A stretch of DNA of 59,501 nt, the filler included, from Porpidia crustulata (lineage: Eukaryota), in NCBI GenBank assembly GCA_964255105.1. It is 5 parts of 5 records of this genome, joined end to end, with 100 filler letters (N's around TTAATTAATTAA, not from the genome) between each part and the next. Parts side by side here need not be neighbours in the genome. Positions count along the whole stretch, not along the records: positions 11,935 to 23,763 come from CAXUWE010000594.1; 4 more parts are not named here. One strand, given 5' to 3'. Below the pieces are notes generated by a model that was not told where the DNA came from, searched no databases, and saw nothing but the letters and a program-made list of their open reading frames with translations. Of this stretch, positions 1 to 52,074 are shown in pieces. How positions within the stretch are numbered: the stretch's first letter is position 1; every line of letters starts with the position of its first letter. The translations under genes and the position numbers were made by a program.

Positions 1-2040
1 AGCTTGGAGGGCGATTCGGTTCTTGCTCTCCCAACATCTCTCTAGTAGTAATATCATGTCTTCTCTCTTCTTGATAGGTTTGAAAGCATATGAGGCAATT
101 GCTTTGGCAAGTTGGACCATTGTGAACCCTTGATAATTCGGCATTCCTTCTGGTAAGGGTTTAGTCGCAGCGACTTCAGGAGTGGGGTTGCTCTTGGCCT
201 TCTTGACTGGAGAGCGGCTTTTCCGAGGGGCTTTGAGTGATCCTTTATTTGCATATTCAGGCGCACGCAATTTAGTATTAGCCATGTGTTTCTCTACCAA
301 CGACGGAGCTCCGACAAGACATTCTCCGATGATAGACTTCACTGGGTCCATGGGGACCATCCACTCTATGTCGGCATCTATGGGAGTTGGAAAAACATTT
401 AATGACACTGATGCTGCAGGTAAGGCTGGATCCTCGATATTACGTATATGTTGAGGCAACGGGGAATCTACAAGGTTGACCACTTCAGCGTGAAGTAATG
501 AGCCAGTTGTATCCCTTGATGCAACTGACCAAAGATTCTTGGAAGCTACATAAGCGGTAACATTCGATATCGTAGTTGACGCTGAGAGCGTGCCCAAGGA
601 TTTCAAAGATTTTGGGCTATCGATGTTGGTATTGATTGTTGTCTCGGAAGCTTCCATTGCCTTCCGCAGGTCTTTGATAAACGTTGGAGAGTCTTCACCC
701 GCAAGCTGGCTGCAGGTGCCAAATACCAGGTCTTGATCCTGAGCTGTCTTTATGGCTGACTCAGGTGATAGAAGGATAGGCACTTTTTCACATGTTTTTT
801 TGGCTTTTTTGGTAGTAGCCTTTGAATTCGTGGCTTTCTTACGCTGTCCTTTCTTGCTTGATATCAAGCCTGTGAGGTCAGGTTCGGCATCTCCATTCTT
901 TGCCGGCGCTGAGGTAGGGAAGTACTGCGACACGGACGCGATATCTTGCGGCGCAGCAGAAGCAAACGGAGCTGTGGCTTTCTCGGTAATCGTTTGAGGC
1001 TTCTTCTTAGGTGAAATACTTTTTTTCGGTTTTGCGGGTTGAGGAGGTAGGCATATAGCTGTGTCGATGAGCTCTAATTTTCGTCTTTTTGTCAGGACTT
1101 CACTGACAGCAATTTGCATAGCTACAGGTGATGTGACCGAATCAGTGCTTGGCCTAAGAAATTCATACCCTCCTAGTAGGTTCGCGAATTGACCAGTAGG
1201 CAGCTCAGTCTTTAAAGGAGATTGGACTGTGTTTGATATATCAAAATCCGTCCCCCGACTCTCCAGCGGTTGCAGACTTGGCAGAGTGTCCTTGGTGGGC
1301 GTCCAGTCTCTTCTCCGTTTCACAGCTTCATCTAAGTTTAGAGGTTTCTTGCTTGCCTTAAAAACCTCTTTAACCCCCAAGTTTTCTCCCTTACTTGTCT
1401 CTTCGTCTTTTTTTAATTTCTGGGGCTTCGCCGTTTTAGTTGCCTTTGTCGCCTTCGACTTCTCACGCGCAGTCCCAGGCTTAGTGACCCTGGCTTTGGT
1501 AATCTTGGTCTGCCCTTCATCCCGATTCTTTCTGCCACGGCCCTTCTTCACTACTGAAATCTCAGCCGTCTCCGTGTGATCACACTTCTGAATCTCGTCA
1601 TCCCTGTTCGGTACATGCCTGGCTGATCCTCCCACTGCAACTTTCTTACGCGGTGCTCTGGGCTTTTTGGGCACTATGCCCTCACCCTCCTGCTTGGCCG
1701 CTGGCCTTTTTCGCTTAGCAGGTGGCTTATCGCAGTTTGATCGATCTCCGTTTACTGCAACCTCTATCTCCTTAGCAAGCGATGGCGATTGTGGTCGCTC
1801 ATCGATATCTGCGTGGCGTAAAAGACTTGATGCGCTTGTGAATTTCGCCACAGCTCCCTTGGGCACCTGACTTGCTCTACTGCCTTCGAACAAACAAGGG
1901 ATGATCTTCGGAAATAGCTGAGAAGGTGATGGCAATCCAGGCGAAGAGGACATTGCGGCATTTAAGGCGCGTGTTGGAGTCGTCGAGATGATAGAGTGCG
2001 AGGGCGATGACGAGAGAATGATTGGATCCATGGCTGCCAT
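1..2040 (-). CDS. SLX4: Structure-specific endonuclease scaffold subunit SLX4, 5' part (runs off the window start)
   Basis: Manual minus-strand translation from ATG at 2040 gives MAAMDPIILSSSP...MSSSPGLPSPSQLF...KKPQTITEKATAPFA...QDLVFGTCSQLAGEDSPTFIKDL...LWSVASRD, motifs typical of Pezizomycotina Slx4. It is absent from the ORF track, consistent with an open frame that leaves the window without a stop. Confidence 0.8.
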   Translation of the reverse strand, partial: MAAMDPIILSSSPSHSIISTTPTRALNAAMSSSPGLPSPSQLFPKIIPCLFEGSRASQVPKGAVAKFTSASSLLRHADIDERPQSPSLAKEIEVAVNGDRSNCDKPPAKRKRPAAKQEGEGIVPKKPRAPRKKVAVGGSARHVPNRDDEIQKCDHTETAEISVVKKGRGRKNRDEGQTKITKARVTKPGTAREKSKATKATKTAKPQKLKKDEETSKGENLGVKEVFKASKKPLNLDEAVKRRRDWTPTKDTLPSLQPLESRGTDFDISNTVQSPLKTELPTGQFANLLGGYEFLRPSTDSVTSPVAMQIAVSEVLTKRRKLELIDTAICLPPQPAKPKKSISPKKKPQTITEKATAPFASAAPQDIASVSQYFPTSAPAKNGDAEPDLTGLISSKKGQRKKATNSKATTKKAKKTCEKVPILLSPESAIKTAQDQDLVFGTCSQLAGEDSPTFIKDLRKAMEASETTINTNIDSPKSLKSLGTLSASTTISNVTAYVASKNLWSVASRDTTGSLLHAEVVNLVDSPLPQHIRNIEDPALPAASVSLNVFPTPIDADIEWMVPMDPVKSIIGECLVGAPSLVEKHMANTKLRAPEYANKGSLKAPRKSRSPVKKAKSNPTPEVAATKPLPEGMPNYQGFTMVQLAKAIASYAFKPIKKREDMILLLERCWESKNRIALQA

Positions 2041-2721
2041 GATGGTCGAGCGCAGAATGCGCGGTAGGTAGAAAAGGTACGACAGACTTGAGCTTCTGTA
2101 TCTCCAATTGCTGCTCCAGAGTCTGCGTAAATATCCTAGGACAAGTTATTGATTATGGTGATGCCGAGGTTGTTGCTATGCCGCATTGTTTACTACGCCG
2201 ACTCGTCTTCATACCTCATTTTCTCACCCTTTAATTCATATATAAACATATAGCACAGCCCAAAGACCACTACTCGCAGACTTGAAGTAAAACTATTGTA
2301 GAAAAAGCTTCATCCATGTGGTCGCAGCACAAGGATCAAAACAGTCCTTTCCTATCTAACGGACCGCGCAGGCATCACTGACGGTGTCAGGAGTCCCCAA
2401 CCAGCAAGCTAAGTAAAAGTAATTTGGATTTTTCTGTTTATATGTGATGTGGGAATACTCGGTTCCATCGATTTGTCTCTGTCCAAGACATCTTAAGGGT
2501 CTGTGATGAAAATCTGCAACTCAAGGCTAAGAGGATATGCTGTAATTGTGCAGATTGTCTGATTCCTCTACTTTAGTGTAGACAATCACCCATTCCATAT
2601 CATAAGTTTCATTCGCACAAGCTTCCCCCTAAGCTGTAAATGCAAAAGTATCGCCAAACGTAAACACCCAAAACCAACGTAAATGAAACCATGAGTCTAC
2701 GGACTCTTTTCCCTAGCGTCA

Positions 2722-11834: not shown

Positions 11835-11934
11835 NNNNNNNNNNNNNNNNNNNNNNNNNNNNNNNNNNNNNNNNNNNNTTAATTAATTAANNNNNNNNNN
11901 NNNNNNNNNNNNNNNNNNNNNNNNNNNNNNNNNN
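11835..11934. other. Artificial contig spacer (44 N + TTAATTAATTAA + 44 N)
   Basis: Exactly 100 nt. The palindromic 12-mer puts TAA stops in all six frames. Four identical copies occur in the window. Confidence 0.98.
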
Positions 11935-12620
11935 CCCTCCTCCCCCTCTCCAAATTTCTTCATCCCCCCCCTCTCACTTCAAATCCCGATCAGCTGGCAC
12001 ACAGCGCTGTTAGTGAGATCGGGTTTTTTGGTATATAAATGCGGAAGCGATCGTCCATACGGCCTCTTTCATTACTCGCCTATCCTCGCTAAATATTTCG
12101 ATTTTGGAATTTTGAAATTTTGCAGAACAAAGTTGGATGATATTAATAGTCAGCGATAGTGGACATGCAACTCGGCGGTTCGCGGTTCGCGGTTGGCGCC
12201 TACATATATTACAAACGCTCATTTAGACTGCTGGCCTACCTCCTACTCAAGTGAAACGTCTGTACGGAGTAGTGGAGCTAGGAGACTGACTGGGGGTGTT
12301 TATTCATGCAAGGAAATGATGAGGGGAAACGTTGAACGTACGCGGAAAGCAGTTTCCTCGATAAAAAAGATGGAAGCCCGGAATTTCCCTTTGTACATCC
12401 ACATTGATACAGGCCTTGCAATCAACAACGAAAACCCCATACTTGTGCGCGTTGAGCAGCACTTGTATCGATACTACAGCGTAACGAACCCTGAATCTAC
12501 ATTGCTCCACAGCCAACAACCCATTTTCTGCCGCCGCTGCAAACAAAAAGCCTGCCGGGTTCCCCCAATCATGCTGATACCCATCAGAACGCCACGCTAT
12601 GCCTTGTTTCCCTCAATCCT

Positions 12621-15093
12621 TCATATCTCCGCCAAGGGCCGGGAATTCCTCCTAGCTCCACTGGAGCTTCCCTCTCCCGGCCCACTATCGCCGGAACTTA
12701 CCCTAGCGCTATTTCCTGCATCGGCCGTGGGCCCTCCACTCACCGTTTCCCGTCCCTCACCCTCATTACCGGTGGACCCCGATTGCTCTATCCTCGGCCC
12801 CTCCTGTTCCCTCCGCTCGAGCCTCTCCCGTTCCTCCCTGTCGTGCTCCTCGGCCGCTTCCCTCAATCCCCGCTCGTGCCTCGCTAGAGTCTCTGCCGCG
12901 CCACGCGCCGCCATGTGGCGTTCGCCTACCCCGGGGACCAAGCTGGCGATGAAGAGCGCAATGGCACGCTCGACGCGACGGAGCATGCTACGGAAGGGTG
13001 TTTCGGTGGCTCGGATGCGCTGTTCAAGCTCCAGGATTCTTCGCTGCGCATTTTCCACCGTAGGTTCCTGCTCTGGTGGGATGCGGTAGCCCACCTGGTC
13101 ATTTCGCAGTATCCGCTCTAATTGGTCGTTTGTCCCGATCGGTAAGAGACCTACGGCATGACGGCGGAGAGGTTCCCAAACGTGCTGGAGGACGGGGCGA
13201 AAAATGCCTGTTTGAGCAATGAAGACTAGGAAGGCGCAGAGGCCCAGAAGGATGGCACGGCGATAAGAGCCACCGGCTGTGAAGAAGTAGACAAAGCCAA
13301 AGAGACGAATGAAAAGCCAGAGATGGCCACCCAAGGGGATAAGGATGCGGAGAAGCTCGCGAGCTTGGTTCGCTTGTTGTTGCTGTTGCTGCTGATGTTG
13401 TACTTGTTGGTCTTGTGCTGGGTCAGGGTTATTTATTAATGGTTGCCCAGCATTGGCTTCGTCAGGTTGAACGGTGGGAAGTGGTGGATTTGTCGTAGGT
13501 ATTGGAATTTGAGGGACCATTGTTGGAAGTGAACCGTGGCCCATCGCTGGCATTCCTGGCTGGAGCCAAGGTGTACCGTATAAGCCTGAAGGCGAGACTA
13601 GAAGAGCCTGTGGGCCATTTGGAGAGGATAGTACGTAGACTGTAGATGAGGGAGCTTCTTGCGGTCTTTGTACAGGTGCCGGCCGCCGCTGATCAGCGAC
13701 AACTCTCATCAACAGGCCAGTGAGACTGGTACGGAGTTGGTCGGCTTGCGTAGATAGATTATCAAGTCGAGTTCGGAGGGACGCCTCAATGCCAGGTGGC
13801 ATATTTCCCTGTTGATTTGCCATAGAGGTCAAGTGTGCTTGTGCCTGCTGGAAAATGGATTCAGCCGGCGCAGTGCCGCTTGCCAGGGTCGACTCCAGAG
13901 CTGAAAGATGCTGTTGAAAGTCTGGGACTGTATTGGGTAGCGAGCTACCATTCGCAGATGGCTGATTACTTAGGAATACCCCAGGAGCTGCTGTTTGAGG
14001 AAGCCGGGATCTCTCGTTACTGCTTGCCGGAGATGCACGAGCGCTCGGTTCAGGTAGACTAGGATTTGAGTGCTCATTATTACTTCTAATGTTATGATTA
14101 TTGGTTATCGTGGACGTAGTCTCCACCACCACGCGCCATTCGCCATTTGGCCCCTGGTTTTCGCGGACAGTTCTGTTGGTATCCGTGGGGGCAGAGTTAT
14201 GGTTTGTGGTGTTTGACGTTGCCCCGTGCATCCCAGGAGGCATATGAGATTGTGAGTTTCCCTGCATTCCGTTTCTTGGTAAACCTCCGAGACCATGAAG
14301 CCCAGCTGCAGCTCTCGCTTGCTGCTGTTGCGCTATTATCTGAGGAAAGCTAGATTGTTGCCATTGACGTGCTTGATTTGAATTCGGAGTCGTATCTGGT
14401 GGCAGGAGTTGTCCAGCTACAGCACTTTGAGCTGCTTGTATTTGTTGCTGGACTAAGGCCTGGATTTGAGAATTGATTACTTGTTGGATTTGTGGTGGTA
14501 GTTGGCCTGGCGGAAAGTGGACGTGGCCTACATGCGGCTGTGCTTGATTCGGTTGTGGAGTGCTTCCCATCCGAGCTGTTTGTGCGGGCTCAGGAGCTTG
14601 CTGGCCTTCTTGCTGTTGCGCTGGAGACCCTGTTCTAGCATGGAGATTGTGCGGGAAATTGGGTGGGTGACTGTGGACGGCGTTCGCTGGCGGTGCAGAA
14701 GAGCCAGCATGTGGTCCGACAGTTGGGGGTAGGACGAGATGCAGTGATAAAGATTCTGAATTATCTATCTACACGTGTGTTAGCTCATGTGATAAAGTCA
14801 ACAGCGAGGATTTAAACCGTTTCTTGAGTGAAAACCTCTCTCAAAGTGCGTCTCTCCTGGACCAAGGCTTTGCCTCTGTAGATCAATCGCTGGCGCTCAG
14901 GTCCCGGTCTGCTCGCGACTTTGTCACGGATTTCATATTTGAGTTCACCAATCGTCATAGCTACAGGCATAACGGGGAAGGTGATTTTGTTTGGGACTTC
15001 CACCGAAGGTGAAAGTACGTGAAGTACAACGGTCTGACGATGAGGCCTGGGTTCCTTCGATGAAGCATCATTACTTGAGCTTGATCCCTCCAT
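12621..15093 (-). CDS. Ubiquitin-like-domain ER membrane protein, HERP/Usa1-like (ERAD scaffold candidate); exons 15093-14818 and 14768-12621
   Basis: N-terminal UBL (TIGELKYEI...PERQRLIYRGKAL...SLHLVLPP after splicing), a long Q/P-rich region, a hydrophobic hairpin (HLWLFIRLFGFVYFF...AILLGLCAFLVFIAQTG) and a C-terminal LFIASLVPG motif. Confidence 0.75.
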
Positions 15094-15421
15094 GCTGAGA
15101 CGAGGAGAGCCCTGACGAGGGTTCCCTAATGCCCATGAGCCATGTGACGGTTTTGATAGGCTGTATTATATTCTCAAAGGGTAGTTGTGAGGCATCTTTG
15201 AAAGTCGCAGAGTTATGTATATTCTATGTGATAGCGTTTGTTGACTTGCAGTACCTAGTGATCTGGCATGTATCAAACGGCAAGTGCCGGCTTCCCTGCT
15301 CAGTCATGATCGCCGCATCGCACTCCGCACTGGTTCCGCTAAAGCTAACACGGCTGGATGAGATGGGCTCACAAGCTTGATAACACTAAATCAATGGTAT
15401 AAATGCAACTTCTTGTCAAGC

Positions 15422-17202
15422 ATGGCGATTCCAGCAGCTAAGGCAGTCTCTCTGTATTGCAGGCTCAATCCTCTCAAACTACCTTCAAGACCTCGGGGCT
15501 ATACTTGCATTTTCTGCCAGCAAAAACAACCAACCCGACGCCGCTTCGCAACTACGGCCAAGAGACTGAGCGCAGAAACAAAGAAAAGTAACCGGGGGCC
15601 CTTTGCTTCGAGGCTTCGTACCGCACTTCGCGATACCAAAGTCGAATGGCGTCCCATCCCCATTGGATTAGGGATCGCCTTTCTTGGAGCTGCGCAATTC
15701 TACAGGGTTCGGCAGCGCGAAAAAGGGCGGCAGCAGGAGGGTGAAGAACAGGAGTACGAAAAGGGTGAAAGCAACGGGGAGAGTACGGAAAGGCCCATAA
15801 AACGAAAACGTGTGCGGCCTAGTGGGCCATGGTAATATAATGATGATTTGAAGAATGCCAAGTAGTTGAATGTCTGACGAATTTATATAGGCAGGTCCAG
15901 GTCATGTCTACTCTGCCTCTGAAGGCAGTATCAAGGCTGTGGGGACGATTCAATGAGCTTCAAATCCCATACTATCTCCGTGTACCAGGTTTCAAGCTGT
16001 ACTCTTGGGTATTCGGGGTAAAGTGAGGCATTCAGAAGATTGTGCTTGCTTAAGCAATGGCTGATGGAGTCAGTTTGGCTGAAGTATCAGAGCCCGATCT
16101 TCACATCTATCCCAACCTTGCTTCGTTTTTCTATCGGACCCTAAAACCGGGAGTTCGTCCACTTGATGACAAACCCTCCGCGTTATTGTCGCCTGCTGAT
16201 GGACGTATACTGCAATTCGGGATGATTGAGAATGGAGAGGTGGAACAAGTTAAAGGTATGACATACACTCTAGAAGCTTTACTAGGCACTACACCCCCAG
16301 AACCATCGCAGTCGCCTACCGCAGCAGACAGAAGCCCGAAACGTGGATCAACGATCGCCAAAATTGGGAGCGAGGATATTATCAGAGCCGATGAGGAATT
16401 TGCAAATGTAAACGGCATATCTTATACCTTACCTAATATGTTCTCTGGCCCGCAAAGCCAAGAAGAGAGTCCTGCAATGGATGCTTCTACGACGCCGAAA
16501 TCGTCCTCTGAAGCTGAGGTTCGTGCGGACCTTGCCTTGGGTGATGGAACCCGAGCATCATGGTTCTCACCAGTATCTACGAAAGTTCCAACGGCATTGT
16601 ATTATCTGGTTGTGTACCTAGCTCCAGGTGATTATCATCGGTTTCATTCGCCCACGTCGTGGGTTGTGGAAAAGCGCCGGCACTTTGCCGGCGAACTCTA
16701 CAGCGTTTCTCCCTACCTACAGCGAACGCTTCCCGGGCTTTTCACTCTGAATGAGCGGGTCGTGCTGTTAGGTCGCTGGCGGTGGGGCTTTTTCAGCTTC
16801 ACTCCCGTTGGGGCCACGAATGTCGGCTCGATCAAGGTCAACTTCGACCGCGAGCTGCGCACGAACAGCCTAACGACAGACACAGCAGCGGATCGGGCAG
16901 CCGAAGAAGCCGCTAAGCGTGGCGAGCCATTCTCCGGCTTCGCAGAAGCTACGTATGCAGAGGCCAGTAAGCTCTTGGGGGGGCACGCGTTGCGAAAGGG
17001 AGAAGAGATGGGGGGCTTTCAGTTGGGAAGCTCAATCGTGATGGTTTTTGAGGCCCCGAAAGGGCGCCGCGAAAGCTTTGATGAAGGTTGGAAAGAGGGA
17101 AGCAGGAAGGGTGGCTGGCAGTGGAGCGTTGAGAAAGGTCAAAAGGTCAAGTATGGTCAAGCTATCGGATGGGTGGAAGAACCGTCTTCAGATCTCCGAT
17201 GA
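15422..17202 (+). CDS. PSD1: Mitochondrial phosphatidylserine decarboxylase proenzyme; exons 15422-15831, 15891-16022, 16074-17202
   Basis: R-rich presequence and a TM segment, then [48 protein letters not shown] and the autocleavage motif FQLGSSIV. Confidence 0.95.
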
Positions 17203-19917
17203 GAATCGGCTGATGCAATTCTCGACCGGTGATAGGAGCTTTTGGCCCCTTTGAGACATTTTTGGATGCCCCCAATTTCCGAATTTACATCAATTTCATA
17301 TGCAGGAACCAATAATCTCTCATTCCCGATCGCCTTCGCTCCTCTCTACCATATGAAGTGTGCAGATTTTTCTCTCATTCTAAGTTTCCCGGCATTAATA
17401 TTCGCCAACTCAGCGGCAAGCTGCGTGACGGGGTGGGTATGTCTCAAGATCAATGATGAACTCATTTCACTCGCGCCTGACTTAGGTACCCAAGCAAGAA
17501 TTAAGGTATGATCAATGGTCTAGGGAACGGTGGTAGTACGTTTCTATCACCGCGCTCTTTCTCCACTAACGGGCCCTGTAATGCCCAGACTCCAACTGAC
17601 GTTAGCATCCAAGTATACTCTATCTAAGGCCGGTAAACATGGAAGGAGCCGACTAAATAGAATATTTTTCACCTTAGTATAAGACTTATAGCAAAGCCAT
17701 CGGCTTTTTCTTCAAAACACTAGAAGATCGAAAAGGTAGGGTCGGCCTTGGAGTATTTGTTTCGCTTTGCCCCTTGTACTGGATTTGATGATAGTGTACG
17801 TCAATACTAACGTATGAAATATATCCATATTTCTCGAATGGATCGAAGCTACGGAACTTAAGCTGGCCCTCGCTATCTACATGGACTAGTCGTAATCATT
17901 AAAGGGTTTGAGGGTGCATGGTATCTTAATGGCCGAGCGAAAAACCATTGTGTAAGCAATGTTGATACAACTTATCAAGCTTCAGATGTCCAGCAGGACC
18001 GCTATGTGCCCCTGTAAATTAAGGTGAGTAAGATTAGAGGCAAAAAATATGACACCGAAGCTGGCTTGCAGAATAGCCAGCTCGAAATTCGAAACGATGC
18101 TGGTCGTCTTCGACCTTTGACCGTAGGATACGCCTCAGACTCCCTCGCATGGCAACTATTTCATGATATCTCATTTCTCTCTTAAGCTTTCTGACGCTGC
18201 TACCTAATTACCAAGATGATATGTGCAGCATGCAATTAAGAAAAGATGTTACGATATCGAAGAAACAATTGATTATCGTATAGGTTCGATCGCACAATTA
18301 GAGTTCTTTATGTGCATGGCAGTAACGTACTGGTAACGAGAACTTCAATGTCTCGAAAGAAGGATATCCGGTGTACACGATAAATACTATAGAGAGAATC
18401 CTCCTTGCGGAAAGTACCATGCGTACACACATTGAAGCATCTATAATCTTCATTGATAAGTGTCGAATCGGTCTATGTTGCTACGGCCAATAGGAAGCCC
18501 CATACGGTGAAAATCGCGTTCAATACCTGGGGAGAGAAGGCGCTCACTTCGTATATTTTGCAGACTTTGTCCGGGACGAAAAGCTTCCCCCATGAGAGTA
18601 AGTCGGCAGCGATCGGAGCAGGACCGTTAGATGTAGCCAAGGCTTTCCCAAAGAGTAGCAATTTGACCCATTCAAAGGTCCTGGCAACTCGACTGTGGTC
18701 CTTTGCGTCACTCTAGGAAGTGGACTGACCGAGAGAAGACCCACAAAGCTGTGCAGAACGATTTACGGCTGATTTAAGTTTATTGTACAGCTGTAACCTT
18801 TGCTATAAGTCAGGCATTATTTTACTGCATATCCCAGATAGACGATTGGATTATCTGTAGTGATGAGGTTTTGTTGACGAATACTACGTTTGTACATACT
18901 CTTATTGCTTAGCAGTCGTGGCAGTAGCTATGGCTACGCTACGAGCTACGATACCAAATGGGGTGGTTGACCTATAATATGGATCATATGTATATATTTG
19001 TGGTTGTCGATTGGTGCCTACCTTGCTTTGTTTACCACCATTTTAGCAAACAACACTTCTCATGCTCATCCTTCCCCCTTCTAAACACCGTAGATACTCT
19101 TCTCGTCGTTCTTCTCTCTCTCACTATTTCCCCTTTCACCAAAGCTACTTTCATATCTCCGACACCTTTCTCATTGCTAAGTACCGGTCCTGCATCATTT
19201 TCCCCATATTGTTTCGGCAATTTCACTCCTGCGTCCACCGCCTCTTCTGCCGGTGGCCGTCTCACCCAGTGTTGCACGCATACTTTGTTACTATAAGATA
19301 CTTCAATTTCCAGCTCATTGTCTTCTTCTTTCTTTCATCACTGAAAATCCTGTGAGAAGGCCGCTTCTCAGTATTGGAGTGGCCGTCACACAGGAGTTCC
19401 TAGTCTTGACTTCACTTTCAAAAGTTCAGGTCACCTGAGACAGGAGGACTGATCAGTTTTGGATCTCGATAATTTTCTCAGCCACTCGCGGTGCAGTCAA
19501 TTGGTATGTTGTACTTTGTCAGACATTTCTCCCTCTTGGTCCATCATGTATCACTTGCCCCACCACATTGGTGGCACAAAGCGCGTGCCCCGCCAACAGC
19601 ACAATTCCCCCATTCTTCTATTCGGCAGACTGCCACCTCACTAGCCTTTTGTTAGCTTCTCTCCGATCTTGTCGAATATATTTCGTGTTAGAACTCAAAG
19701 GAATTTTTAACTAACGCTTTAGTTTTGGCCGCCAGCTTGAAATCCCATATCTCGGCGATCTCGTACAGCCCAACCAATTGCACACGATATATCGGTGTAT
19801 CCAAGGCTACATCACTCACGATATCTTCTCTATTGTGCCTAGAACCAGATTCTAATAAGCAAGGATCGTATCTCCAACGTTCTCTTACTTCACCCTTTGA
19901 CCAATTTTCGCGCAACC

Positions 19918-20090
19918 ATGACAGGAAGAGGCCAAGGCCGTAATCGTGGCGACCGTGGTGGTGGTAACCGTGGCACCGGCGGTAGCCGTGGTGGAGGTGG
20001 TGGAAGTGGTGGTGGATATCGTGACGACCGTGGCGGAGGATTCCGTGGCGACCGTGGTGGAGGTGGCCGAGGCCGCGGTGGCTTCGATGG
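19918..20090 (+). repeat. RGG/GRG low-complexity coding repeat in Argonaute exon 1
   Basis: Recurrent CGTGGC/CGTGGT/GACCGTGG units encoding GRGQGRNRGDRGGGNRG...FRGDRGGGGRGRGGF. Confidence 0.85.
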
Positions 20091-23000
20091 ACCCGTTCCC
20101 CTTTACAGGTAATCCTCATACTTCCTATCCCATATCTTTCTGATACCCTGACCTAGTCTCGTTGACAGCCCAAATGAAGATCTTGAACAGCCGGACCCAC
20201 AGGTTCAGAAACGAGAAGATAATATCGTTACAGCCCAAAAGAGCTTGTCTTTGAAATCTTTGTCAATTTCTAGATCCAACTTACCGGACAGACCGGGCTA
20301 TGGATCTTCTGGTCGCTCAATCATCCTACGCACGAACTACTTCCGTCTTTTGCCCAAGTCCGATCAGAAACTCTTCAAATACAAGGTCGCGATCACGCAA
20401 AAAGTCAAGGATACAGATGGCAAAGAAAAGGAAGAAGCGGTAACAGCTGCCTACAAGCTACGCCGTGCTTTCACGCTGTTGCTTCAAAATACAGGATCTT
20501 TCCAGGAGCTCGGCAGCGGAGTGGCAACTGATTACAATGCTATGATTGTCACGTCCAAAGAGCTAGATCTAGGGGATGATGGCCGAAAAGCATTCCCAAT
20601 CGTCTTCTTCGACAAGGAAGGTATTCTACCAGGTCATACGCTTCAAGCGGGGGCTCCGCGCACCAGAGACTATATTGTGAGGATAGAAGCCAACGGGTAC
20701 GTTGCAATTCCAGAGCTCCTGGACTATTTAGACGCCCATCCAGCCAGCCAAAGCTCGAACTTCGAGGGCAAGTTAAAAACACTCCAATCCCTTAACGCTA
20801 TCATGGCACAGACCCCAAACGAAAGTAGTAACCTTGTCACCAGTAGTGGCAATAAGTTCTTTCCTTATCCAGCGTCTTATCCTAATCGAAGGGATCGAGA
20901 AGGCAGACTTCTGCTCGAGAACAACCTCGGTGCCGGTCTAGTTGCTCTACAGGGGTACTACAGCAGTGTTCGCACATCGACCTTGCATGTTCTGCTCAAC
21001 GTCAATGTTTGCACTTCGGGTTTCTATCCTGCTATAAATTTATTGGACCTCTTCCGTTTGCGCATGGAAGCAATTACGAAATATCTAGATTATGGAAAGA
21101 TAGAACCGTTCATCAAGCTACTTCGCGTATCAATAGCTCACAGCAAAAACGCTGGTGTCACTGTCACGCAAGTCAAGACCATTCGTGGATGTTCACGACC
21201 CCCACGCGCTCGAGGCCTACACAGCAATGCGGAACAGATCAGATTCAAGGCTCAGGGCTGGCAGGCGTCCCAGGAAGACCGAGATTACCGTAGAGGAATA
21301 CTACCGAAGAAAGTACAACATATGACTTGAACACCCAGATGTCGCTCTGATAGATGTCAGCGCCGGAGATAAACCGCCTACCTACCTACCGCCTGAGCTC
21401 TGCCAAATTCTTCCTGGGCAAATATACAGAAAGAAGCTGAGTAATGATGAGACGTCTCAGATGCTCAAATATGCGGCTAGACCACCGACAGGCGATGCAT
21501 TGCTTATCATGAACAAGGGGCTAGACGTTGTCGGCGTATATGGCAGCAAGAACAAAACAAATCCGATCCATGCCGCATTTAGGTTGTCAATCAAGCCAAA
21601 GATGATAACAGTCAACGGAAGGATCTTGCCCGCACCTAGAATACTGTATAAGACTGCCAAGATGGAAACTTCGCCTCGAGACGGTAGCTGGAACATGTCC
21701 AATCTCCAATTCACAGTACCCATGGTCATCAACAACTGGTCGTACATCGAATTCAACCTCCCAGATATTCAAGAAATAAGATCGGAAGAGGAATTTCGAC
21801 AAGACCTTCGAGTCTTCCAGGAGACTCTTCGTGAATGCGGAATATCCGCCGGGCGCCCGGTTTATTCTCCAACTCATCATATAAACTTGTTTGCGGATAA
21901 GCAAGGGAACATGAATGAGGATAAGAACGATCAGGTCATCAGAGCTTACTTCAAGGAAATAGCGGAGACGACGGCGGCTAGGATCTTGCTCGTCATTTTA
22001 CCAACTAAACATGCAGGAACATATGCTCGCATCAAATATTGGGCCGATGTGATTTACGGTATACACACCGTATGCGTAAATGGAAATTATAGAAAATTCT
22101 ACAATAACCAAGGAAGGTCGCAACAACAGTACTGCGTAAACGTCGCGCTGAAGTTCAACCTGAAGGCAGGAGGTGTCAATCAGTCTTTGCCCGCGAATAA
22201 CATGGGATTGCTTCAGGATGATAAGACGATGGTCGTCGGTATCGACGTGACGCATCCTTCTCCGGGAAGCCTCGACGAGACGCCGAGTATCGCAGGCGTC
22301 GTTGCTAGTATTGACAAGCGGTACGCTCAGTGGCCAGCCAGTATTCGCCCTCAGACGAGCAAGCAGGAGATGATGGATAGTCTGGATCAAATGGTCACTG
22401 AGAGACTACAGTTATGGAGAAAGAACAATGGCGGCAAATTACCTGAGAAAATCATCGTGTACCGCGATGGGGTTTCCGAAGGGCAGTACGAGACCGTGCT
22501 TCAGATCGAACTGCCTGGATTTCAAACGGCATGCGAGAAACTCTACGGTAAACTACCACGGCCTAAGATATCGATCATCATTGTCGGCAAGAGGCATCAC
22601 ACTCGATTCTACCCAACTTCAACGAACGACGGCGATCGTAACGGTAACACCAAAAACGGCACCGTGGTGGATCGCGGCGTAACAATGGAAAATGGCTGGG
22701 ACTTCTTCTTACAAGCCCACCACTGCCTCAAAGGGACCGCCAAACCGGCCCATTACGTTGTGATTCGCGACGAAATCGGTCTAGGAGCAGACGTCCTCGA
22801 GCAGATGGTGAGTCATCCGCTCTATCTTTCCGACACCGAGTGCTAACACGTGAACTTCTTCTAGACCCATAACCTCTGCTACCTCTTCGGCCGCGCCACT
22901 AAAGCCGTCTCTATTTTCCCGCCAGCTTACTACGCCGACCTCTTGTGCGAACGCGGACGCTGCTACCTGCAGAAATCGCTGGCTGCGGATACCGGAAGCG

Positions 23001-23095
23001 TCAAACCCGGACGGAAGTTTGATTGGAAACAATCGGAATGGCAGCGCGAAGGCGGCGTGCATGAAAGGCTGAAGGATTCCATGTTCTACATTTAG
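19918..23095 (+). pseudogene. Argonaute (QDE-2/Ago family) disrupted within PAZ by a frameshift (~21255-21280) and an in-frame TGA (21323-21325); exons 19918-20108, 20169-22807, 22865-23095
   Basis: RGG-rich N-terminus, RPGYG..G..I.LRTNYF (N domain) and GYYSSVR..LNVNV (L1). The PAZ core EITVEEYYRRKYNI*LEHP...YLPPELC lies in a different frame from the upstream ORF. PIWI motifs VGIDVTHP, QE, YRDGVSEGQ, GKRHHTRF, GTAKPAHY, PAYYADL and the terminal MFYI are present. The Argonaute identity is secure; pseudogene versus assembly error is unresolved. Confidence 0.8.
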
Positions 23096-23763
23096 ATTTC
23101 TGGATCCTGATCTCGACGACTTTCCTTTGGGTTTCCGGTCTCCCCATTTTGAGCTTCGTTTCCGGTTTAGCGCTTTGAGCGCTATGCTGCGGTCCATGTG
23201 GACCTTAGATGACGACGACCAAGAAGCTACGAAGATTCCATGAACTTCGGAAACGATACCAAAGGCCAACACCGGCTTACGAGTTCACTCGCTTTTCTTC
23301 TCCAGACCACTTTTTCATAATAGCCCCAAAATCCAACACAGAAGCGACCACCTTGAACAATGATCCATGCAGCTCTCATCCAACTACACTAACATTTCAG
23401 ACACGAGAGCGGCTAGCCTATTGCTCACGATGACTGCACAGCCGGTAGATGTTTCGTTATTCGGCCTCCCTCTTTCGATCAATAGACAGCCAGTGGTGCG
23501 GTCTCCGCGTAGGATAGATAGCTATGAATGATTATGGATAATTTTCCATCCCGATTCTTTGAGTGTGCTGTGTGTGAGGCTATGAAAGAGATTCGCGTCG
23601 AGAGAATTGGGGTTGATTGATCGATTATTTCCCACGCGTATAGTCTTCTACCGGTATTCGCATACACGAACCTCCATGGACCTCCTTTTCCACTTTCAAC
23701 GTTCTCTCCGCACTCCCCTCCAACACTTTTTTATATCATGTCCCTGCCCCCCTAGCCCCATTC

Positions 23764-23863
23764 NNNNNNNNNNNNNNNNNNNNNNNNNNNNNNNNNNNNN
23801 NNNNNNNTTAATTAATTAANNNNNNNNNNNNNNNNNNNNNNNNNNNNNNNNNNNNNNNNNNNN
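23764..23863. other. Artificial contig spacer (44 N + TTAATTAATTAA + 44 N)
   Basis: Same 100-nt structure as at 11835. Confidence 0.98.
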
Positions 23864-32117: not shown

Positions 32118-35031
32118 ATGTCGGGCAGGAGCGCCTTTGTGCGCGTGAAGAATACAGAGCAGGCGGACAAGAGGGCTCATCGAGCGTACTCAGACTATGG
32201 CAAGGAAGATCACTTCGTCTATGGCTACTCCGGTGCGCCACTCTCGATGTCAAGACCAGCGATCTCCGCCGACCCATCCCACATCTCTTCCCCACGTCCG
32301 CGGCGTCGTCAATCGATTTCGTCCGCCGGTAGCACCTACGGGTATCCTCCTCCCTCGATGCGCAAACCTCGTCCCATCATTGTTGCTTCTGCGATCGAGA
32401 AGAGCGATTTCCGGACCCATCTGGATGGCATGAGCGCTAGTCTACGGGGGAAGCTTGGCAGATTGATGAAGGGTGGGGACGACCATACGCCTCTTGGTCG
32501 CCGGCGAACCGGCCCCGTCACCGTCAGCTCGGATACGGAATCACGCAGCACTGACTTTACACCTTCCATCAACGCAGTGCCATCGTTGACGGCGAGCACA
32601 TCTCCCTCGGAAGGTCCGCCAACCTATCCGTCTTTTGGTCCATCTACATCGCATGTGATAAGGGCAAAGCAGCAACAGCAACAAGAGTCGGTGCTCCATA
32701 AGATTAGAAGGTTTGAAGGGGGCGGGAAGCTGCCTCAGCTCGGATGGAAATCATTAGCAAGTGTTAGTGATGTACCTCTGTCAACCTCTTCTGGAGTATG
32801 TGCTGACCAATGCAATACAGAACCCCGAGCTATGGGACGAGAATGGAGATACGTTTGTGTACATGTATATGCGAGGTTCCCGAACGAAGCCTCCACCATC
32901 GTTTCGGATCAATTCCAACGTCATAGTACAATCAGGCTCAAAAGCATTTATTGACAAGCTCTATAACCCCGATGAACCCGAAGGCTGGCCACGGTTTTAC
33001 CCCTATGAACCACGGGACTCTGGATTTGTGTCGCGAGGAGATCCGTCAGAATCTTTTACCAACTACGCACATGGGATGAACCTGAACGGCGATGATGACG
33101 ACATCGATGCAATCTGCCCTTTGGACGATCCCAGGAGGTATACAGCAAAGGCTCCTAGAGGCATCCAGCATGAGATCTACGTTCCATGGCCAGGCGCGGA
33201 AGTTGGTACCCATTCAACCATATGGCACATCACTACTCGAAACTTCTTCGCCGTCATGTACGATGCAAGTGCTTTGGTCGGGACTACACTACACGAGGCC
33301 ATGTTCAAGTTGTTCGAACGCATTAGCATCTATCCGGATTATTTGGAGTCGAATATTGGCAAAGTGGATTGGCTTACTGATTACCTAGTCCGGCACAAAT
33401 TCGACGACGTTCGCAATAATCCTTCTTACGCCGCGTCGATACTTGCTTTCAGCGAAAGAGTGCAATGGAGGGAAGGCTACATCGAAGCGTTTGTGCACTG
33501 CGTGGGAATGTTGAACTTCGGTCTCACAACCGTACCTGAATGGCGCTTCATATCCGAACAAACAAAGATCTTCATCAATAACGCGAATTTGGAATTCGAG
33601 GAGCGCATTCACCGAGCACAGAAATGGCTTCTCTCCTTTGAGTTCAACGACATGTGGGTAGCCACTAGCGTAGCACCGACCCCGGCTCGTCAATGCTATG
33701 ACAGGTTGAGGAAGTGGCTTTGCAAATACTACGAGAATGCTTTCCTCCATTGGCCACCAACCAACGACCAGACATGGCTGACACGCGATATGGTGTTGCG
33801 GTTGAAGAATGATTTTCATGGGCTATACGACTACCTCGTGGACCGCGACGTAATATTCGATGGCTCCGAATATCGTGCTGATCAGAAGTGGGCAATCAGT
33901 AGCTCGTCCGGGCGTTCCTTCAAAGCAGATTCGTCCGAGCTGCCTCTAACAGACATCCTCGCCGGCTTCGACACGCGCAACCACTTCCCTCACATTCCGC
34001 ACCCTTACCCGGTGTGTCCGGCTTCCGTCCCGGTACAAATGAAGCCAAAGTCTTCATTCATGCTCAAAAAGCCTTCCTCTCCAAGTGATACCACCTCCCA
34101 GTCCCGTCGCAAAGTCCTCTCCTACTCCGAAGCCACCAATGTCTACATACTTCGCGATCACACCATGCACACCGATCTTGTCAGCAACTTCATCAAGTTT
34201 GAACAACAAGACATGATCGACTCGTACGACCCTTACGAGGCTCGTCGTGGCCGCTGGGTTCTCATCTATGGCATTCTCCAAGTCTTGGCCACGGTATCCG
34301 TCGACAGCCCAAATCTTCGTTATAAAGACAATGTACAGTACCACCTGAGCCCTCAGATGAAAGGTATCGTACCATGGTCTACCCCAGGTTCTCCGCCAGA
34401 AGACGAAGCAGAACATACACGCTCCCACTGCTGGACTATCCCCGCCACTTGGGGACCATCGATTCCCAAAGCCCGTCCAGGCGCGCACAAACCAATTCTC
34501 TGGGGCCAATTCGGCGACGGGCGCGTCCGAGGCGAGAGTGTCGAAGGAGAATGTGTCATGACTCCGCCCGCGAATCGTGACCGTGTCGCGACCCCGCCAG
34601 GGAAAAGCGAACGTATCGTCACCCCACCGTTGAACCGCGAACGTGTCATGAACCTGACGTTCGACCGCAATCTGTCCTTCGACCGGAACCAATTCCCGTC
34701 GCCTTTGGACCGCGACCGCGTCATCACCCCTTCCCTCGACCGCGTCATCACGCCCCAGAAATCCAGTGAGCTCAGTATCGGCCGCAAGCGCGCGGAAGAG
34801 TGGGTGGCAGGGCAACATATGGATATCCGCAGCGACGCGGGCGTGAGCGCTCCACCTGTAGATACGGAAACGATCATGAGCGAGAGCCCGCCGAAAGCGA
34901 GGAAAAACAGCGGCGTGACGGTCGACAGGGTTAGTGGCAGTAGTGGGGATTGTTCGAGTGAGAGTGCGGCGAGGAGGCGGAGAGCCTTGATCCATGGGTT
35001 TACGGATTTTCAAGTGCCAGACGAGTGGTGA
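32118..35031 (+). CDS. Conserved fungal hypothetical protein (globular central domain, disordered termini); exons 32118-32762 and 32821-35031
   Basis: A 58-nt GTTAGT..GCTGAC..CAG intron joins two long ORFs in frame. The motifs ELWDENGD, PSFRI, TTRNFFA, WREGYIEAFVHCVGM and ARRGRWVLIYGILQVL recur in an uncharacterised ascomycete family. Confidence 0.8.
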
Positions 35032-35681: not shown

Positions 35682-35781
35682 NNNNNNNNNNNNNNNNNNN
35701 NNNNNNNNNNNNNNNNNNNNNNNNNTTAATTAATTAANNNNNNNNNNNNNNNNNNNNNNNNNNNNNNNNNNNNNNNNNNNN
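35682..35781. other. Artificial contig spacer (44 N + TTAATTAATTAA + 44 N)
   Basis: Same 100-nt structure as the other spacers. Confidence 0.98.
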
Positions 35782-35974: not shown

Positions 35975-38205
35975 AATTGATACTCCCAAATACTAGACTC
36001 GAATGTCTCCTGCGGATCAGAAGTCAAAGAACAGCCACCCAGGGAAGGGCTGCAAAGAATCGGATCCTGGTATCCCCATGTCTGGTTGAGATACTTTGGC
36101 TGGAAGAAGCCTGTGAATCCCGAATCACTGCCATTAATCACAGACTTCTGGTCGGCCTTGAAGATATTCTGCCAATTCTGCGACCTCTTGGCATATTTCT
36201 CGGCATCTGCAATTTTGCCCAAGCCTTTGGCCATGGTAGATATGCAAAAATCATCGTAAGAATATTCTACTGTTCTGGATATACTCCTGGAGTTGGTACC
36301 GAAACCGAGATAATCGTAATCCTCTGCCGGAATGTAGTTATGGCTCTTCCAACTCTGCAAGCCACCCCTTCCCTCGACCGACCAATCGATCGGCTCGTTT
36401 TCGGCGTCATTGACCACCGCTGCGTACGCCGAGTTCCAGTCGATTCCGGGAAGTTTCTTGACGTACGCGTCGGTGAGTACCACGTCGGCGTTGGAACCTC
36501 CTTGGGTGAATCCCTTGCACAAGCTCATGCGACAGTCTGGGAGCCAACCAAGGTGCTTGTAGGTGTCGATCAAGCTGCGTACCATTCTGGACTGAGCTTC
36601 TGGATCGATTAATGTGAGAAGGGGATGCTGTGCTCGAAATGAATCCCATATACTAGTCATCGTCAGCTCAATAATTGAATGATGGACACTGACAAGCTAA
36701 AAGAATGAAGAGACGATAGCGAGCAAATGGTACGTTAAAGACTGTAAAATATTGAACCTAGAAATGAATGACACAACTGAGATTTGGTATTGAGTGATTG
36801 TGTAATTAGATGTGACAAGCTATAATTCGACCTTAAAAGCTCCTTCAGAGACAATTGAAGTGATGCCACCTACCAATAAAAGGAATCAAAGTACGGCTCC
36901 GTACTCTGCCAAAGAGAATTTTCACCAGTATAATCTTGAGGCGATTGGAAGTTCCTGTAGATACCGCTGTAGAAAATGGTCTGGAGTTCTTCACTCGCTC
37001 CACCAGGCTGAATGGTGACCGGACTGAGCTTCTTCCTCCAAGCATCCTCGGCAGTTCGCTTCACCTTGTCAAACCCAAAGTCTGGTATCTCGTCCTCAGT
37101 ATTGCGACAAGCTTGGGCTGAACTAATGAAGCTGACACCGACTCTAGCTGTGATCGTATTATTGACAGTAGGGGGTTTGAACCTAGCCCACCCTCCACCA
37201 ATCAGATTGAAAAGGTTGACTCCACGGGTGATAAAAATATTCTTGGGCTCCGAGCCTGCTCTATCGTTTACAAAGATACCTGTGTCACGAACCGGAGCAC
37301 CTGAGAAATCGGCACAAAAGTGCAAGACATAATAGCCGCTTCCGAAGCTCGGAAGAAAGGTACCATTGCCTGTCATTCTGGCCGTGTCCGGGTCGACTGT
37401 GATGGTCGCATTCTGACGCGATTCCCAGAGATCGCTCAGATCTAGCAGGATCAAAGGACTCAGGGGGATACCCTCGGCGGGCTCAGGGGGGAACTCGAAG
37501 CGATAAAGGGCAGTATGATTCGAGGCTGTCATCTCGGTTCGTATAGAGCTGTTGAGCGTAATAGCAAAATATCCTGGGCTTGCTCTGAGAGTGCCATTGA
37601 TCGGTTGTATTGCCCTGCGTGCCTTGGGAAAGGCGCAATTGTTGATATCATCATCTCGACACCCAGCCTGGGGGAATATAGGAAAATTTCCTAGCGAAGG
37701 TTGCTCAATACACGAAAGTTATCAGTAATTCTTGAGGTCAAATTGACTGTGCAGTGGATTGTATTCATTTACTGGACACCACATACGGAACCTGTCCCAC
37801 TATCATGCATTGAACTGAAACCAGTAATATTCGATCCGTCTGTACCAAATCCACCAGTGTTTTCGCCGTCGACGTCGGCAACGGCTTTGGCCATCCCTGT
37901 GGAAAATCTCCATCAGCGTGGATGCTTCGTTGATGACTTGACTACCGACATCATACCATAAGGCAAAGATGCACCAGCAAATACATTTCCTAGCCGTCAG
38001 TCAGTCACCTGACGGCCACTGAGCTCTATTTTAATCCAAGATCCTGCTCACCTCCATTATCCGTTCCGATAAGTTGGTTCACGTACGTGAAGACATCAAA
38101 AGCACTGCTATCAGTAGTGACATTGACGCATGCAGTCATTCGACTCAAATCCAGCAGGATGAGTAGGGACCTGGACAGCATCCACAGCGATTTCTTGTTG
38201 AACAT
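35975..38205 (-). CDS. Glycoside hydrolase family 92 alpha-mannosidase, 3' end missing; exons 38205-38052, 37989-37957, 37896-37787, 37703-36874, 36652-35975
   Basis: The spliced product reads YVNQLIGTDNG|GNVFAGASLPY|GMAK...GFSSMHDSGTGS|QPSLGNF...YFDSFYC|IWDSFR...GWLPDCRMS..GFTQGGSNAD...SRTVEYSYDDF...FESSIWEY, all GH92 motifs. Confidence 0.9.
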
Positions 38206-47598: not shown

Positions 47599-47698
47599 NN
47601 NNNNNNNNNNNNNNNNNNNNNNNNNNNNNNNNNNNNNNNNNNTTAATTAATTAANNNNNNNNNNNNNNNNNNNNNNNNNNNNNNNNNNNNNNNNNNNN
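47599..47698. other. Artificial contig spacer (44 N + TTAATTAATTAA + 44 N)
   Basis: Same 100-nt structure as the other spacers. Confidence 0.98.
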
Positions 47699-50837: not shown

Positions 50838-52074
50838 TCACCGCCTAATTATACGGCTGCGGAACGCCCTCTTCGACGCCGCCCCAAACTTTCCCGCCAC
50901 GCACGCCGTCATCAAAGGCACATCCGTCCAATTACTCCCCATCCTCGTCGGCGTCAACGCCAACGGATACGTCGCATCGAAACTCCCTGCTGCCCACGCC
51001 GTCCACCCCAGAAAAACATCTGGATTCGTATCCATGAACCCAAACGCACCGCACAGATTCATCAGACACGATCCATCCGAGCTCCCGCCGCCGGTCTCGG
51101 ACAGCAGGGCTTGGCGGTTGGCTGAGCGCAGGTATGTGGCCAAGGGCCTGAAGGCGCTGTCAACGGCGTTGGTGACGCAGGTGGGGTGGGTGCCGCTGTA
51201 GTCGGAGTCGAGGTATTGGTGGACGTCGTAGATGAGGTTAGTGGTGGAGTTGTCAGGGTTGGTGATGGTGGCGAGGAATGGGGCGGATTGGGTTGCGAAG
51301 GCGCCCGCGGAGGTGTAGTCGGTGCCTGGGAGGAGGATGATTTGGGTGATGGCGCCGGCGTTACGGATGGCGGTGACTGCGGATTGGAGGGTGATGGCCC
51401 ATGTAGTCATGTCGACTGTTGGGGGAAATTAGTTGAGGTTGGGAGGGTGAAAGGNNNNNNNNNNTTGGGCGACATGCGTGCCGGGGGGGCGCGGCAACGC
51501 TCGCTATTAATTTACGATCGTGGGGTTCGTTCATGAGGCCCATGACGACTTTATTGTTGCCGGCGTATTTCCCGGCGAGCTGGCTCCAGAGACTCGCAAA
51601 TTGCTCGTTCGAGGGTCCGCCTTGACCGATGATCTGTCCGTTCCAGCGGGCGTAATTATGGATGTCGATAATGCAGTGGGCGCCGGTCGACAGGCATGCT
51701 TGCACCAGCGCGTCGTATTTGCCGCTGTTTGTTGGGTCGAGAGGACCTGCTTGGTTGTCGTTGACGAGGTATTGCCATCCGACTGGTAGCCTGTACATGT
51801 TCAACCTGTCGTCGTTGGAGAAGTGGCTCATCTGGCCGGCTCCGTCGACTTGCTGGTTGCTGTATTGGAGAAGTGGTGGGTAGGCGGAGGAGACGGTGCA
51901 AGTGCCCTAGACCGTGGATCAATGAAGGGTTTAGTTGTAAGTATGGTGATGAAATACATCGGTGCCACAACCAAAATCGAATCCTGCAATATTGACTCCA
52001 GCGAATTGAAGCCCAGCGAGGGCCCTGCCGAAGCACAATACGATGCTTGCTGTTGCAAGTAATTTTAAGAACAT
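50838..52074 (-). CDS. Secreted GH5 (subfamily 5-like) endo-beta-1,4-glucanase without CBM1; exons 52074-51958, 51906-51516, 51415-50838
   Basis: Signal peptide MFLKLLATASIVLCFGRALA, AGVNIAGFDFGC, RLPVGWQYL, IDIHNYARW, acid/base MNEPHD, DVHQYLDSD, nucleophile SETGGG and WAAGSF. A 10-N gap (51455-51464) lies inside intron 2. Confidence 0.93.

Follow-up and report, generated by a model that had tools for sequence, protein, structure and literature searches.

An Argonaute gene in the 59,501-base window, the whole stretch of DNA analysed here, has its reading frame broken and a stop codon introduced within about 70 nt of the PAZ-coding region, and the remainder of its 3 kb holds no other stop or frame change. 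Most likely, a QDE-2-type Argonaute is seen here as a null allele or as a copy inactivated very recently, either fixed or segregating. The gene lies on the second of the contigs that make up the window (11935-23763, 11,829 nt), and its parts and lesions are as follows.

19918-23095, + strand: Argonaute gene of three exons, from ORFs, Pfam and translation
19918..20108, + strand: exon 1, with the ATG, a 63-residue tail and 2 bases of a split codon, from ORF and translation
20109..20168, + strand: intron 1, 60 nt, GTAATC ... CTGAC/TTGAC ... ACAG
20169..22807, + strand: exon 2, encoding N, L1, PAZ, L2, MID and most of PIWI, with the lesions inside, from Pfam
22808..22864, + strand: intron 2, 57 nt, GTGAGT ... 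GCTAAC ... CTAG
22865..23095, + strand: exon 3, encoding the end of PIWI (...DSMFYI), with the TAG stop at 23093-23095
21256..21289, + strand: frame A gives way to frame C, a net shift of -2 or +1 bases, from ORFs and frameshift-aware alignments
21323..21325, + strand: TGA in the ancestral frame C of PAZ, where the relatives P0001 and P0121 have Arg and Lys, respectively
21328..21330, + strand: TGA ending frame A translation of the DNA as it is (ORF 20152..21330)

Exon 1 encodes a Gly/Arg-rich N-terminal tail of the RGG type; intron 1, a phase 2 intron, connects it to exon 2 in frame A. Exon 3, which reads THNLCYLFGRATK in agreement with the relatives, holds Piwi profile positions 267-301. The three exons, of 191, 2639 and 231 nt, total 3061 nt (1 mod 3); the CDS is therefore +1 or -2 from a whole number of codons and fails to give a single uninterrupted frame after removal of the introns. 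Pfam places ArgoN (E 1.3e-14) and ArgoL1 (E 1.6e-11) in the upstream frame A; PAZ is matched at profile positions 62-122 by frame C, read from 21281 and with the TGA entered as X (E 7.7e-15, 55.4 bits); and the downstream frame yields ArgoL2 (E 4.1e-11), then ArgoMid and then Piwi (E 9e-68). The ArgoMid match (E 7.9e-06, 26.5 bits) falls just below the cut-off of 27.5. The six-domain order ArgoN-L1-PAZ-L2-Mid-Piwi appears only when both frames are read, and the match to the PAZ profile in frame C points to homology and not to chance.

Among solved structures, the best matches are to human AGO1-4, at about 228 bits, and the MID-PIWI chain of Neurospora QDE-2, 2yhb_A, is matched with 222.6 bits over query residues 222-500 (279 residues). 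The motifs GIDVTHP, KQEMM, YRDGVSEGQ and PAHY align with GADVTHP, RQEII, YRDGVSEGQ and PSHY of human AGO2/AGO3 chains, at AGO2 positions that we take to be those of the slicer catalytic tetrad (D-E-D-H). Judged from its sequence, the gene is a eukaryotic Argonaute of the AGO clade and putatively of the fungal QDE-2 type, as opposed to the SMS-2 type of meiotic silencing, the QDE-2 label being drawn only from the names that matches carry in their source and from the 2yhb match. Sequence, ORFs, Pfam and the structure alignment all bear out the statement of an earlier note on this DNA that both introns and the rest of the gene are intact.

The same note had described an N-L1-PAZ frame that runs open until the PAZ core shifts to another frame from 21281 and meets a TGA at 21323-21325, and the sequence and its stop-to-stop ORFs agree. 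Frame A (codon starts at 1 mod 3) has no stop between 20152 and 21327, reading ...NAEQIRFKAQGWQASQEDRDYRRGILPKKVQHMT, and is closed by the TGA at 21328-21330. Frame C (2 mod 3) reads ...KTEITVEEYYRRKYNI, the TGA at 21323-21325 and LEHPDVALIDVSAGDKPPTYLPPELCQILPGQ..., and is then open to 22846; from 21281 onwards, the conserved PAZ in this frame is EITVEEYYRRKYNI-TGA-LEHPDVALID.... It is only in the ancestral frame that the TGA at 21323-21325 counts as a lesion, and the actual stop is that at 21328-21330. The out-of-frame tail after ...AQG comprises 23 residues if the shift is at the earliest site, about 21257, and fewer if it is later.

Relatives were sought in a collection of 5.8 billion proteins, with the C part and the N part as queries and also among proteins of near length. 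A 509-residue query from 21281, compared with longer proteins, gave 2043 matches at E <= 0.001 among 7966 candidates. P0001 was the best of these at 69% identity, with all others at or below 50%; the top named matches (45-50%) come mostly from lichen-forming ascomycetes with a few Geoglossomycetes, and matches named QDE-2 stand lower in the list at about 44%. The N-terminal query gave 18 matches at E <= 1e-30, adding P0121 (61%) to P0001 (62%), and the search among near-length proteins retrieved 234 proteins at E <= 1e-100, including the window's own 461-residue call, P0126. Partial calls from the same clade are P0127 (66%) and, over the Piwi part, P0134 (79%) and P0181 (84%); these begin inside the gene, likely because callers of the prokaryote style stop at introns, and they were set aside as evidence.

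Alignment to relatives, recommended in the earlier note, is informative at the site of the lesions. P0001 and P0121, whose PAZ domains score 59.4 and 61.3 bits, are both open through the broken zone. Each has 13 residues between an anchor F and ITV, a spacing that would take 39 nt, and the window has 37 nt, two bases fewer. Frameshift-aware protein-to-DNA alignments with a penalty of -10 were made against the two proteins. One 2-nt deletion scored 173 against P0001 and 194 against P0121, two 1-nt deletions scored 171 and 193, and one 1-nt insertion scored 167 and 186, so the window more probably lacks two bases than carries an additional one. The placement of the events varies with the model and the relative used (21257 with 21271/21274, or 21274/21286, or 21277/21289). 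These scores do not separate one 2-nt deletion from two 1-nt deletions, and they accord with the proposal already made that a single indel or two single-base losses could explain the shift.

By simple arithmetic, the chance that two lesions fall within 70 nt of a 3061-nt CDS is about 5%, and for three, it is about 0.2%. Such clustering is unlike that of independent neutral hits and would be better explained by one complex mutation, by an artefact or by a segment that is bypassed. A search of 21100-21500 for hairpins and slippage sites found no inverted repeat and only two trivial direct repeats.

How long the gene has been without constraint can be gauged from its other residues. In the 257 columns with at least 80% agreement among 13 outgroups, the window keeps 230 residues and P0001 keeps 234. 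Depending on the outgroup, unique residues number 47-63 on the window's lineage and 36-51 on that of P0001, a difference with a chi-square above 3.84 in only 3 of the 13 cases. The mean numbers of unique changes, window against P0001, are 21.8 and 15.5 in the N part and 35.4 and 25.2 in the C part, a modest excess of about 1.3-1.4 fold, and the two intact relatives differ likewise between themselves (23.2 against 16.7 in the N part, 1.4 fold). This excess could reflect constraint relaxed for longer than 'very recent' would suggest. Overall, the slight decay and the otherwise unbroken 3 kb of the gene argue that it was constrained for nearly all of the time since its split from these relatives, and we infer that, measured against that span, the lesions are recent.

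The course of events that we favour is therefore one of recent inactivation. In an uncultured ascomycete, a QDE-2-type Argonaute would have been disabled very recently within about 70 nt of PAZ, by a net loss of two bases in 21256-21289 (one 2-nt or two 1-nt deletions), to which the nonsense TGA at 21323-21325 adds. Translation of the mRNA would yield N-L1, approximately the first half of PAZ and a short out-of-frame tail of at most 23 residues, stopping at 21328-21330. As this stop is about 1.5 kb upstream of the last intron, we infer that the transcript is probably a target of NMD; the disabled copy would give no guide-binding, slicing-competent protein.

The principal competing explanation is that the gene is intact in the organism, the missing bases and the T at 21323 stemming from the reads or from a low-depth patch of the assembly. 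We regard this as unlikely. The sequence depth is indeed low, with a word depth of about 9, the tight cluster of lesions resembles a local error patch, and short runs (GGG, CCC/GG/AA) offer places for the missing bases. These runs are nevertheless only 2-3 bases long and are not typical places of systematic miscalls, and a substitution together with at least one indel in most of about nine reads is improbable as random error.

Public data bear on the same question. The stretch occurs in a single public run, X1, in which its share of sampled words is 1.00, and no RNA run was listed for it. An X1 contig of 10,927 nt with a word depth of 9.32 covers 19800-22866 with 0 differing letters and 0 gaps, so that two separate assemblies agree base by base over 3067 nt; separate X1 contigs also cover 22840-23700, again with 0 differing letters and 0 gaps. 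An assembler slip is unlikely given that separately built contigs are identical over this length. X1 may itself be the run from which the window was assembled, and minority variants are lost from contigs; the agreement thus argues against an assembler slip and leaves room for an error at the level of the reads or for a mixture of alleles. Two related runs, X2 and X3, gave pieces of 34-46 nt only, all less than 90% alike, and are uninformative on orthologues, and the exact 44-nt stretch just 3' of the TGA had 0 matches in JGI metagenome contigs. The X1 contig set breaks at 22840-22866, at the start of the conserved exon 3, with the depth passing from 9.3 to 7.7; this may mark a word held in common with a paralogue, or a strain variant.

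As a control on the general quality of the assembly, the 146 ORFs that extend over 90 residues or more from stop to stop were all compared with Pfam, and 22 have a family. Eight other frame junctions were inspected (GH32, RabGAP-TBC, F-box/LRR, PIG-S, ERV, ERGIC_N to ERV, GH5 and GH92). Seven of them are a plain GT...CTRAY...YAG intron; the eighth, GH92 at 36697-36872, starts GTAGGT and appears intron-like from its 5' site. Long ORFs of 500-1003 residues in the window are unbroken. From these junctions and ORFs, the assembly is not generally indel-prone, and the break in the Argonaute gene is the sole unexplained one among the junctions inspected. Of the three readings offered in the earlier note, an assembler error is accordingly disfavoured, by the identity with X1 and by the intron-like junctions, and a recent loss and a segregating null allele both stand.

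A second alternative is that the broken segment is bypassed by splicing, with removal of a cryptic intron restoring the frame and eliminating the TGA to give a full-length Argonaute whose PAZ is without the ITVEEYY...LEHP region. The candidate is speculative.

21290..21338, + strand: candidate cryptic intron, 49 nt, GTAGAG...CCCAG, with no CTRAY

A GT...AG unit of length 1 mod 3 would remove the TGA and offset the shift exactly, its 5' site resembles the GTAGAT and GTAGGT of real introns in the window, and splicing here would account both for the cluster of lesions and for the little decay elsewhere. Set against this is the number of such units: a survey of GT/GC-AG pairs 40-200 nt apart that take frame A to frame C past the TGA gave 44 formal solutions in the zone, so that one like this is expected by chance. 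The candidate is, moreover, without the CTRAY branch motif that real introns here carry, and the segment that it would remove is the best-matching part of the PAZ profile. With 10 of 16 residues identical to P0001 and 11 of 16 to P0121, this segment is no less conserved than the gene as a whole and was thus coding until recently. We consider splicing of this kind very improbable. Were it to occur, it would represent the birth of an intron from a nonsense-bearing coding segment, caught in progress. The fungus would produce an Argonaute whose PAZ 3'-end pocket is gutted, a natural case in eukaryotes of this protein working with no canonical PAZ core. An intron as part of the ancestral gene structure was rejected: every one of the 44 formal solutions deletes the conserved PAZ core, and the contention that no intron could clear both lesions and spare that core holds in full.

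Recoding, in which the ribosome would shift near 21256-21289 and read through the TGA at 21323 to make the full-length protein, can be virtually dismissed: the otherwise intact gene is the sole point in its favour, whereas two or three separate recoding events would be needed within 70 nt, no slippery heptamer is seen by eye in the zone nor any inverted repeat in 21100-21500, the relatives encode the stretch in one frame, and we know of no such mechanism for fungal Argonautes. Two further processes were considered and rejected. RIP introduces many transitions and no indels; as the main cause here, it is at odds with the presence of indels and with the retention of 230 of the 257 conserved columns. 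A-to-I stop-loss editing occurs in some Sordariomycetes, where an A preceded by G is in a disfavoured context; the frame change is beyond repair by editing, and the A of the UGA follows a G.

Returning to recent inactivation, the nearest known system is QDE-2, the quelling Argonaute of Neurospora crassa, with its orthologues in filamentous ascomycetes. The window gene has the same N-L1-PAZ-L2-MID-PIWI order and likewise a Gly/Arg-rich N-terminal tail, and among its closer matches are proteins named 'QDE2 protein' and 'post-transcriptional gene silencing protein QDE-2'. It differs from QDE-2 in that its PAZ frame is broken, with a stop inside, and no full-length protein is encoded; its identity to named fungi is, moreover, only 43-50%. 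P0001 and P0121, gene calls that come from metagenomes or genomes, are 61-69% identical and have the same architecture and the 13-residue spacing, and they are unlike the window in being open through PAZ.

According to PMC7763443, QDE-2 acts in quelling and in the control of transposons, and the loss of RNAi in fungi has been linked to viruses, transposons and centromeres. Loss or inactivation of RNAi genes is described, in PMC7763443 and PMC4778953, for Saccharomyces cerevisiae, Ustilago maydis and Cryptococcus deuterogattii. In those fungi, the whole pathway has gone or decayed across a species, whereas the present case is of one gene copy bearing two or three fresh lesions. Expression of RNAi genes has been described for at least one lichen fungus (bioRxiv 10.1101/2024.08.16.608140), and our search for literature joining Argonaute, RNA interference and lichen-forming fungi found none beyond that report.

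The earlier note had spoken of the loss of an RNAi effector, which is apt for this gene copy and not for the organism. Another X1 contig, of 12,961 nt and with a depth of 10 compared with 9.3, matches 22220-22267 (- strand, coding for GIDVTHPSPG) at 40 of 48 bases, and it may carry a second Piwi-domain gene, from the same organism or from another in the sample. With a Piwi-like contig of similar depth in X1, loss of RNAi in the organism is not to be inferred from the broken copy. If our reading is right, the gene would provide an early-stage example of the recurring loss of RNAi in fungi, with an Argonaute only just broken and in an ascomycete lineage that has been little sampled. Inactivation is an ordinary kind of event, which would here concern one gene copy of one low-depth, metagenome-style assembly, and it opens no new question. 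Its practical use is as a flag for annotation, in that the gene should not be modelled as intact, nor the loss of RNAi deduced from this gene alone.

Several minor features of the gene family and of the window were also recorded. The calls for relatives end or start around ...YG|IHTVC... (the C-terminus of P0121 and the N-termini of P0134 and P0181), where the window reads through. P0121 ends ...YGKSN, which, going by residues and not DNA, is consistent with an intron starting GTAAGT, and the relatives may thus have a PIWI intron that has no counterpart in the window gene.

The window itself consists of five contigs, each of about 11.8 kb, and as these are joined by spacers, gene neighbourhood across the spacers is without meaning.

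11835-11934, 23764-23863, 35682-35781 and 47599-47698: N-run spacers, N44-TTAATTAATTAA-N44

These spacers put a stop in all six frames. Three long ORFs, at 12624-14768 (-), 32758-35028 (+) and 1-2145 (-), have 715, 757 and 715 residues, respectively, and no Pfam family was found for them at E <= 0.001. Finally, a GH5 cellulase gene on the - strand contains a 10-N gap at 51455-51464, which is flanked by Pfam Cellulase profile positions 17-134 and 142-271 and apparently lies inside an intron.
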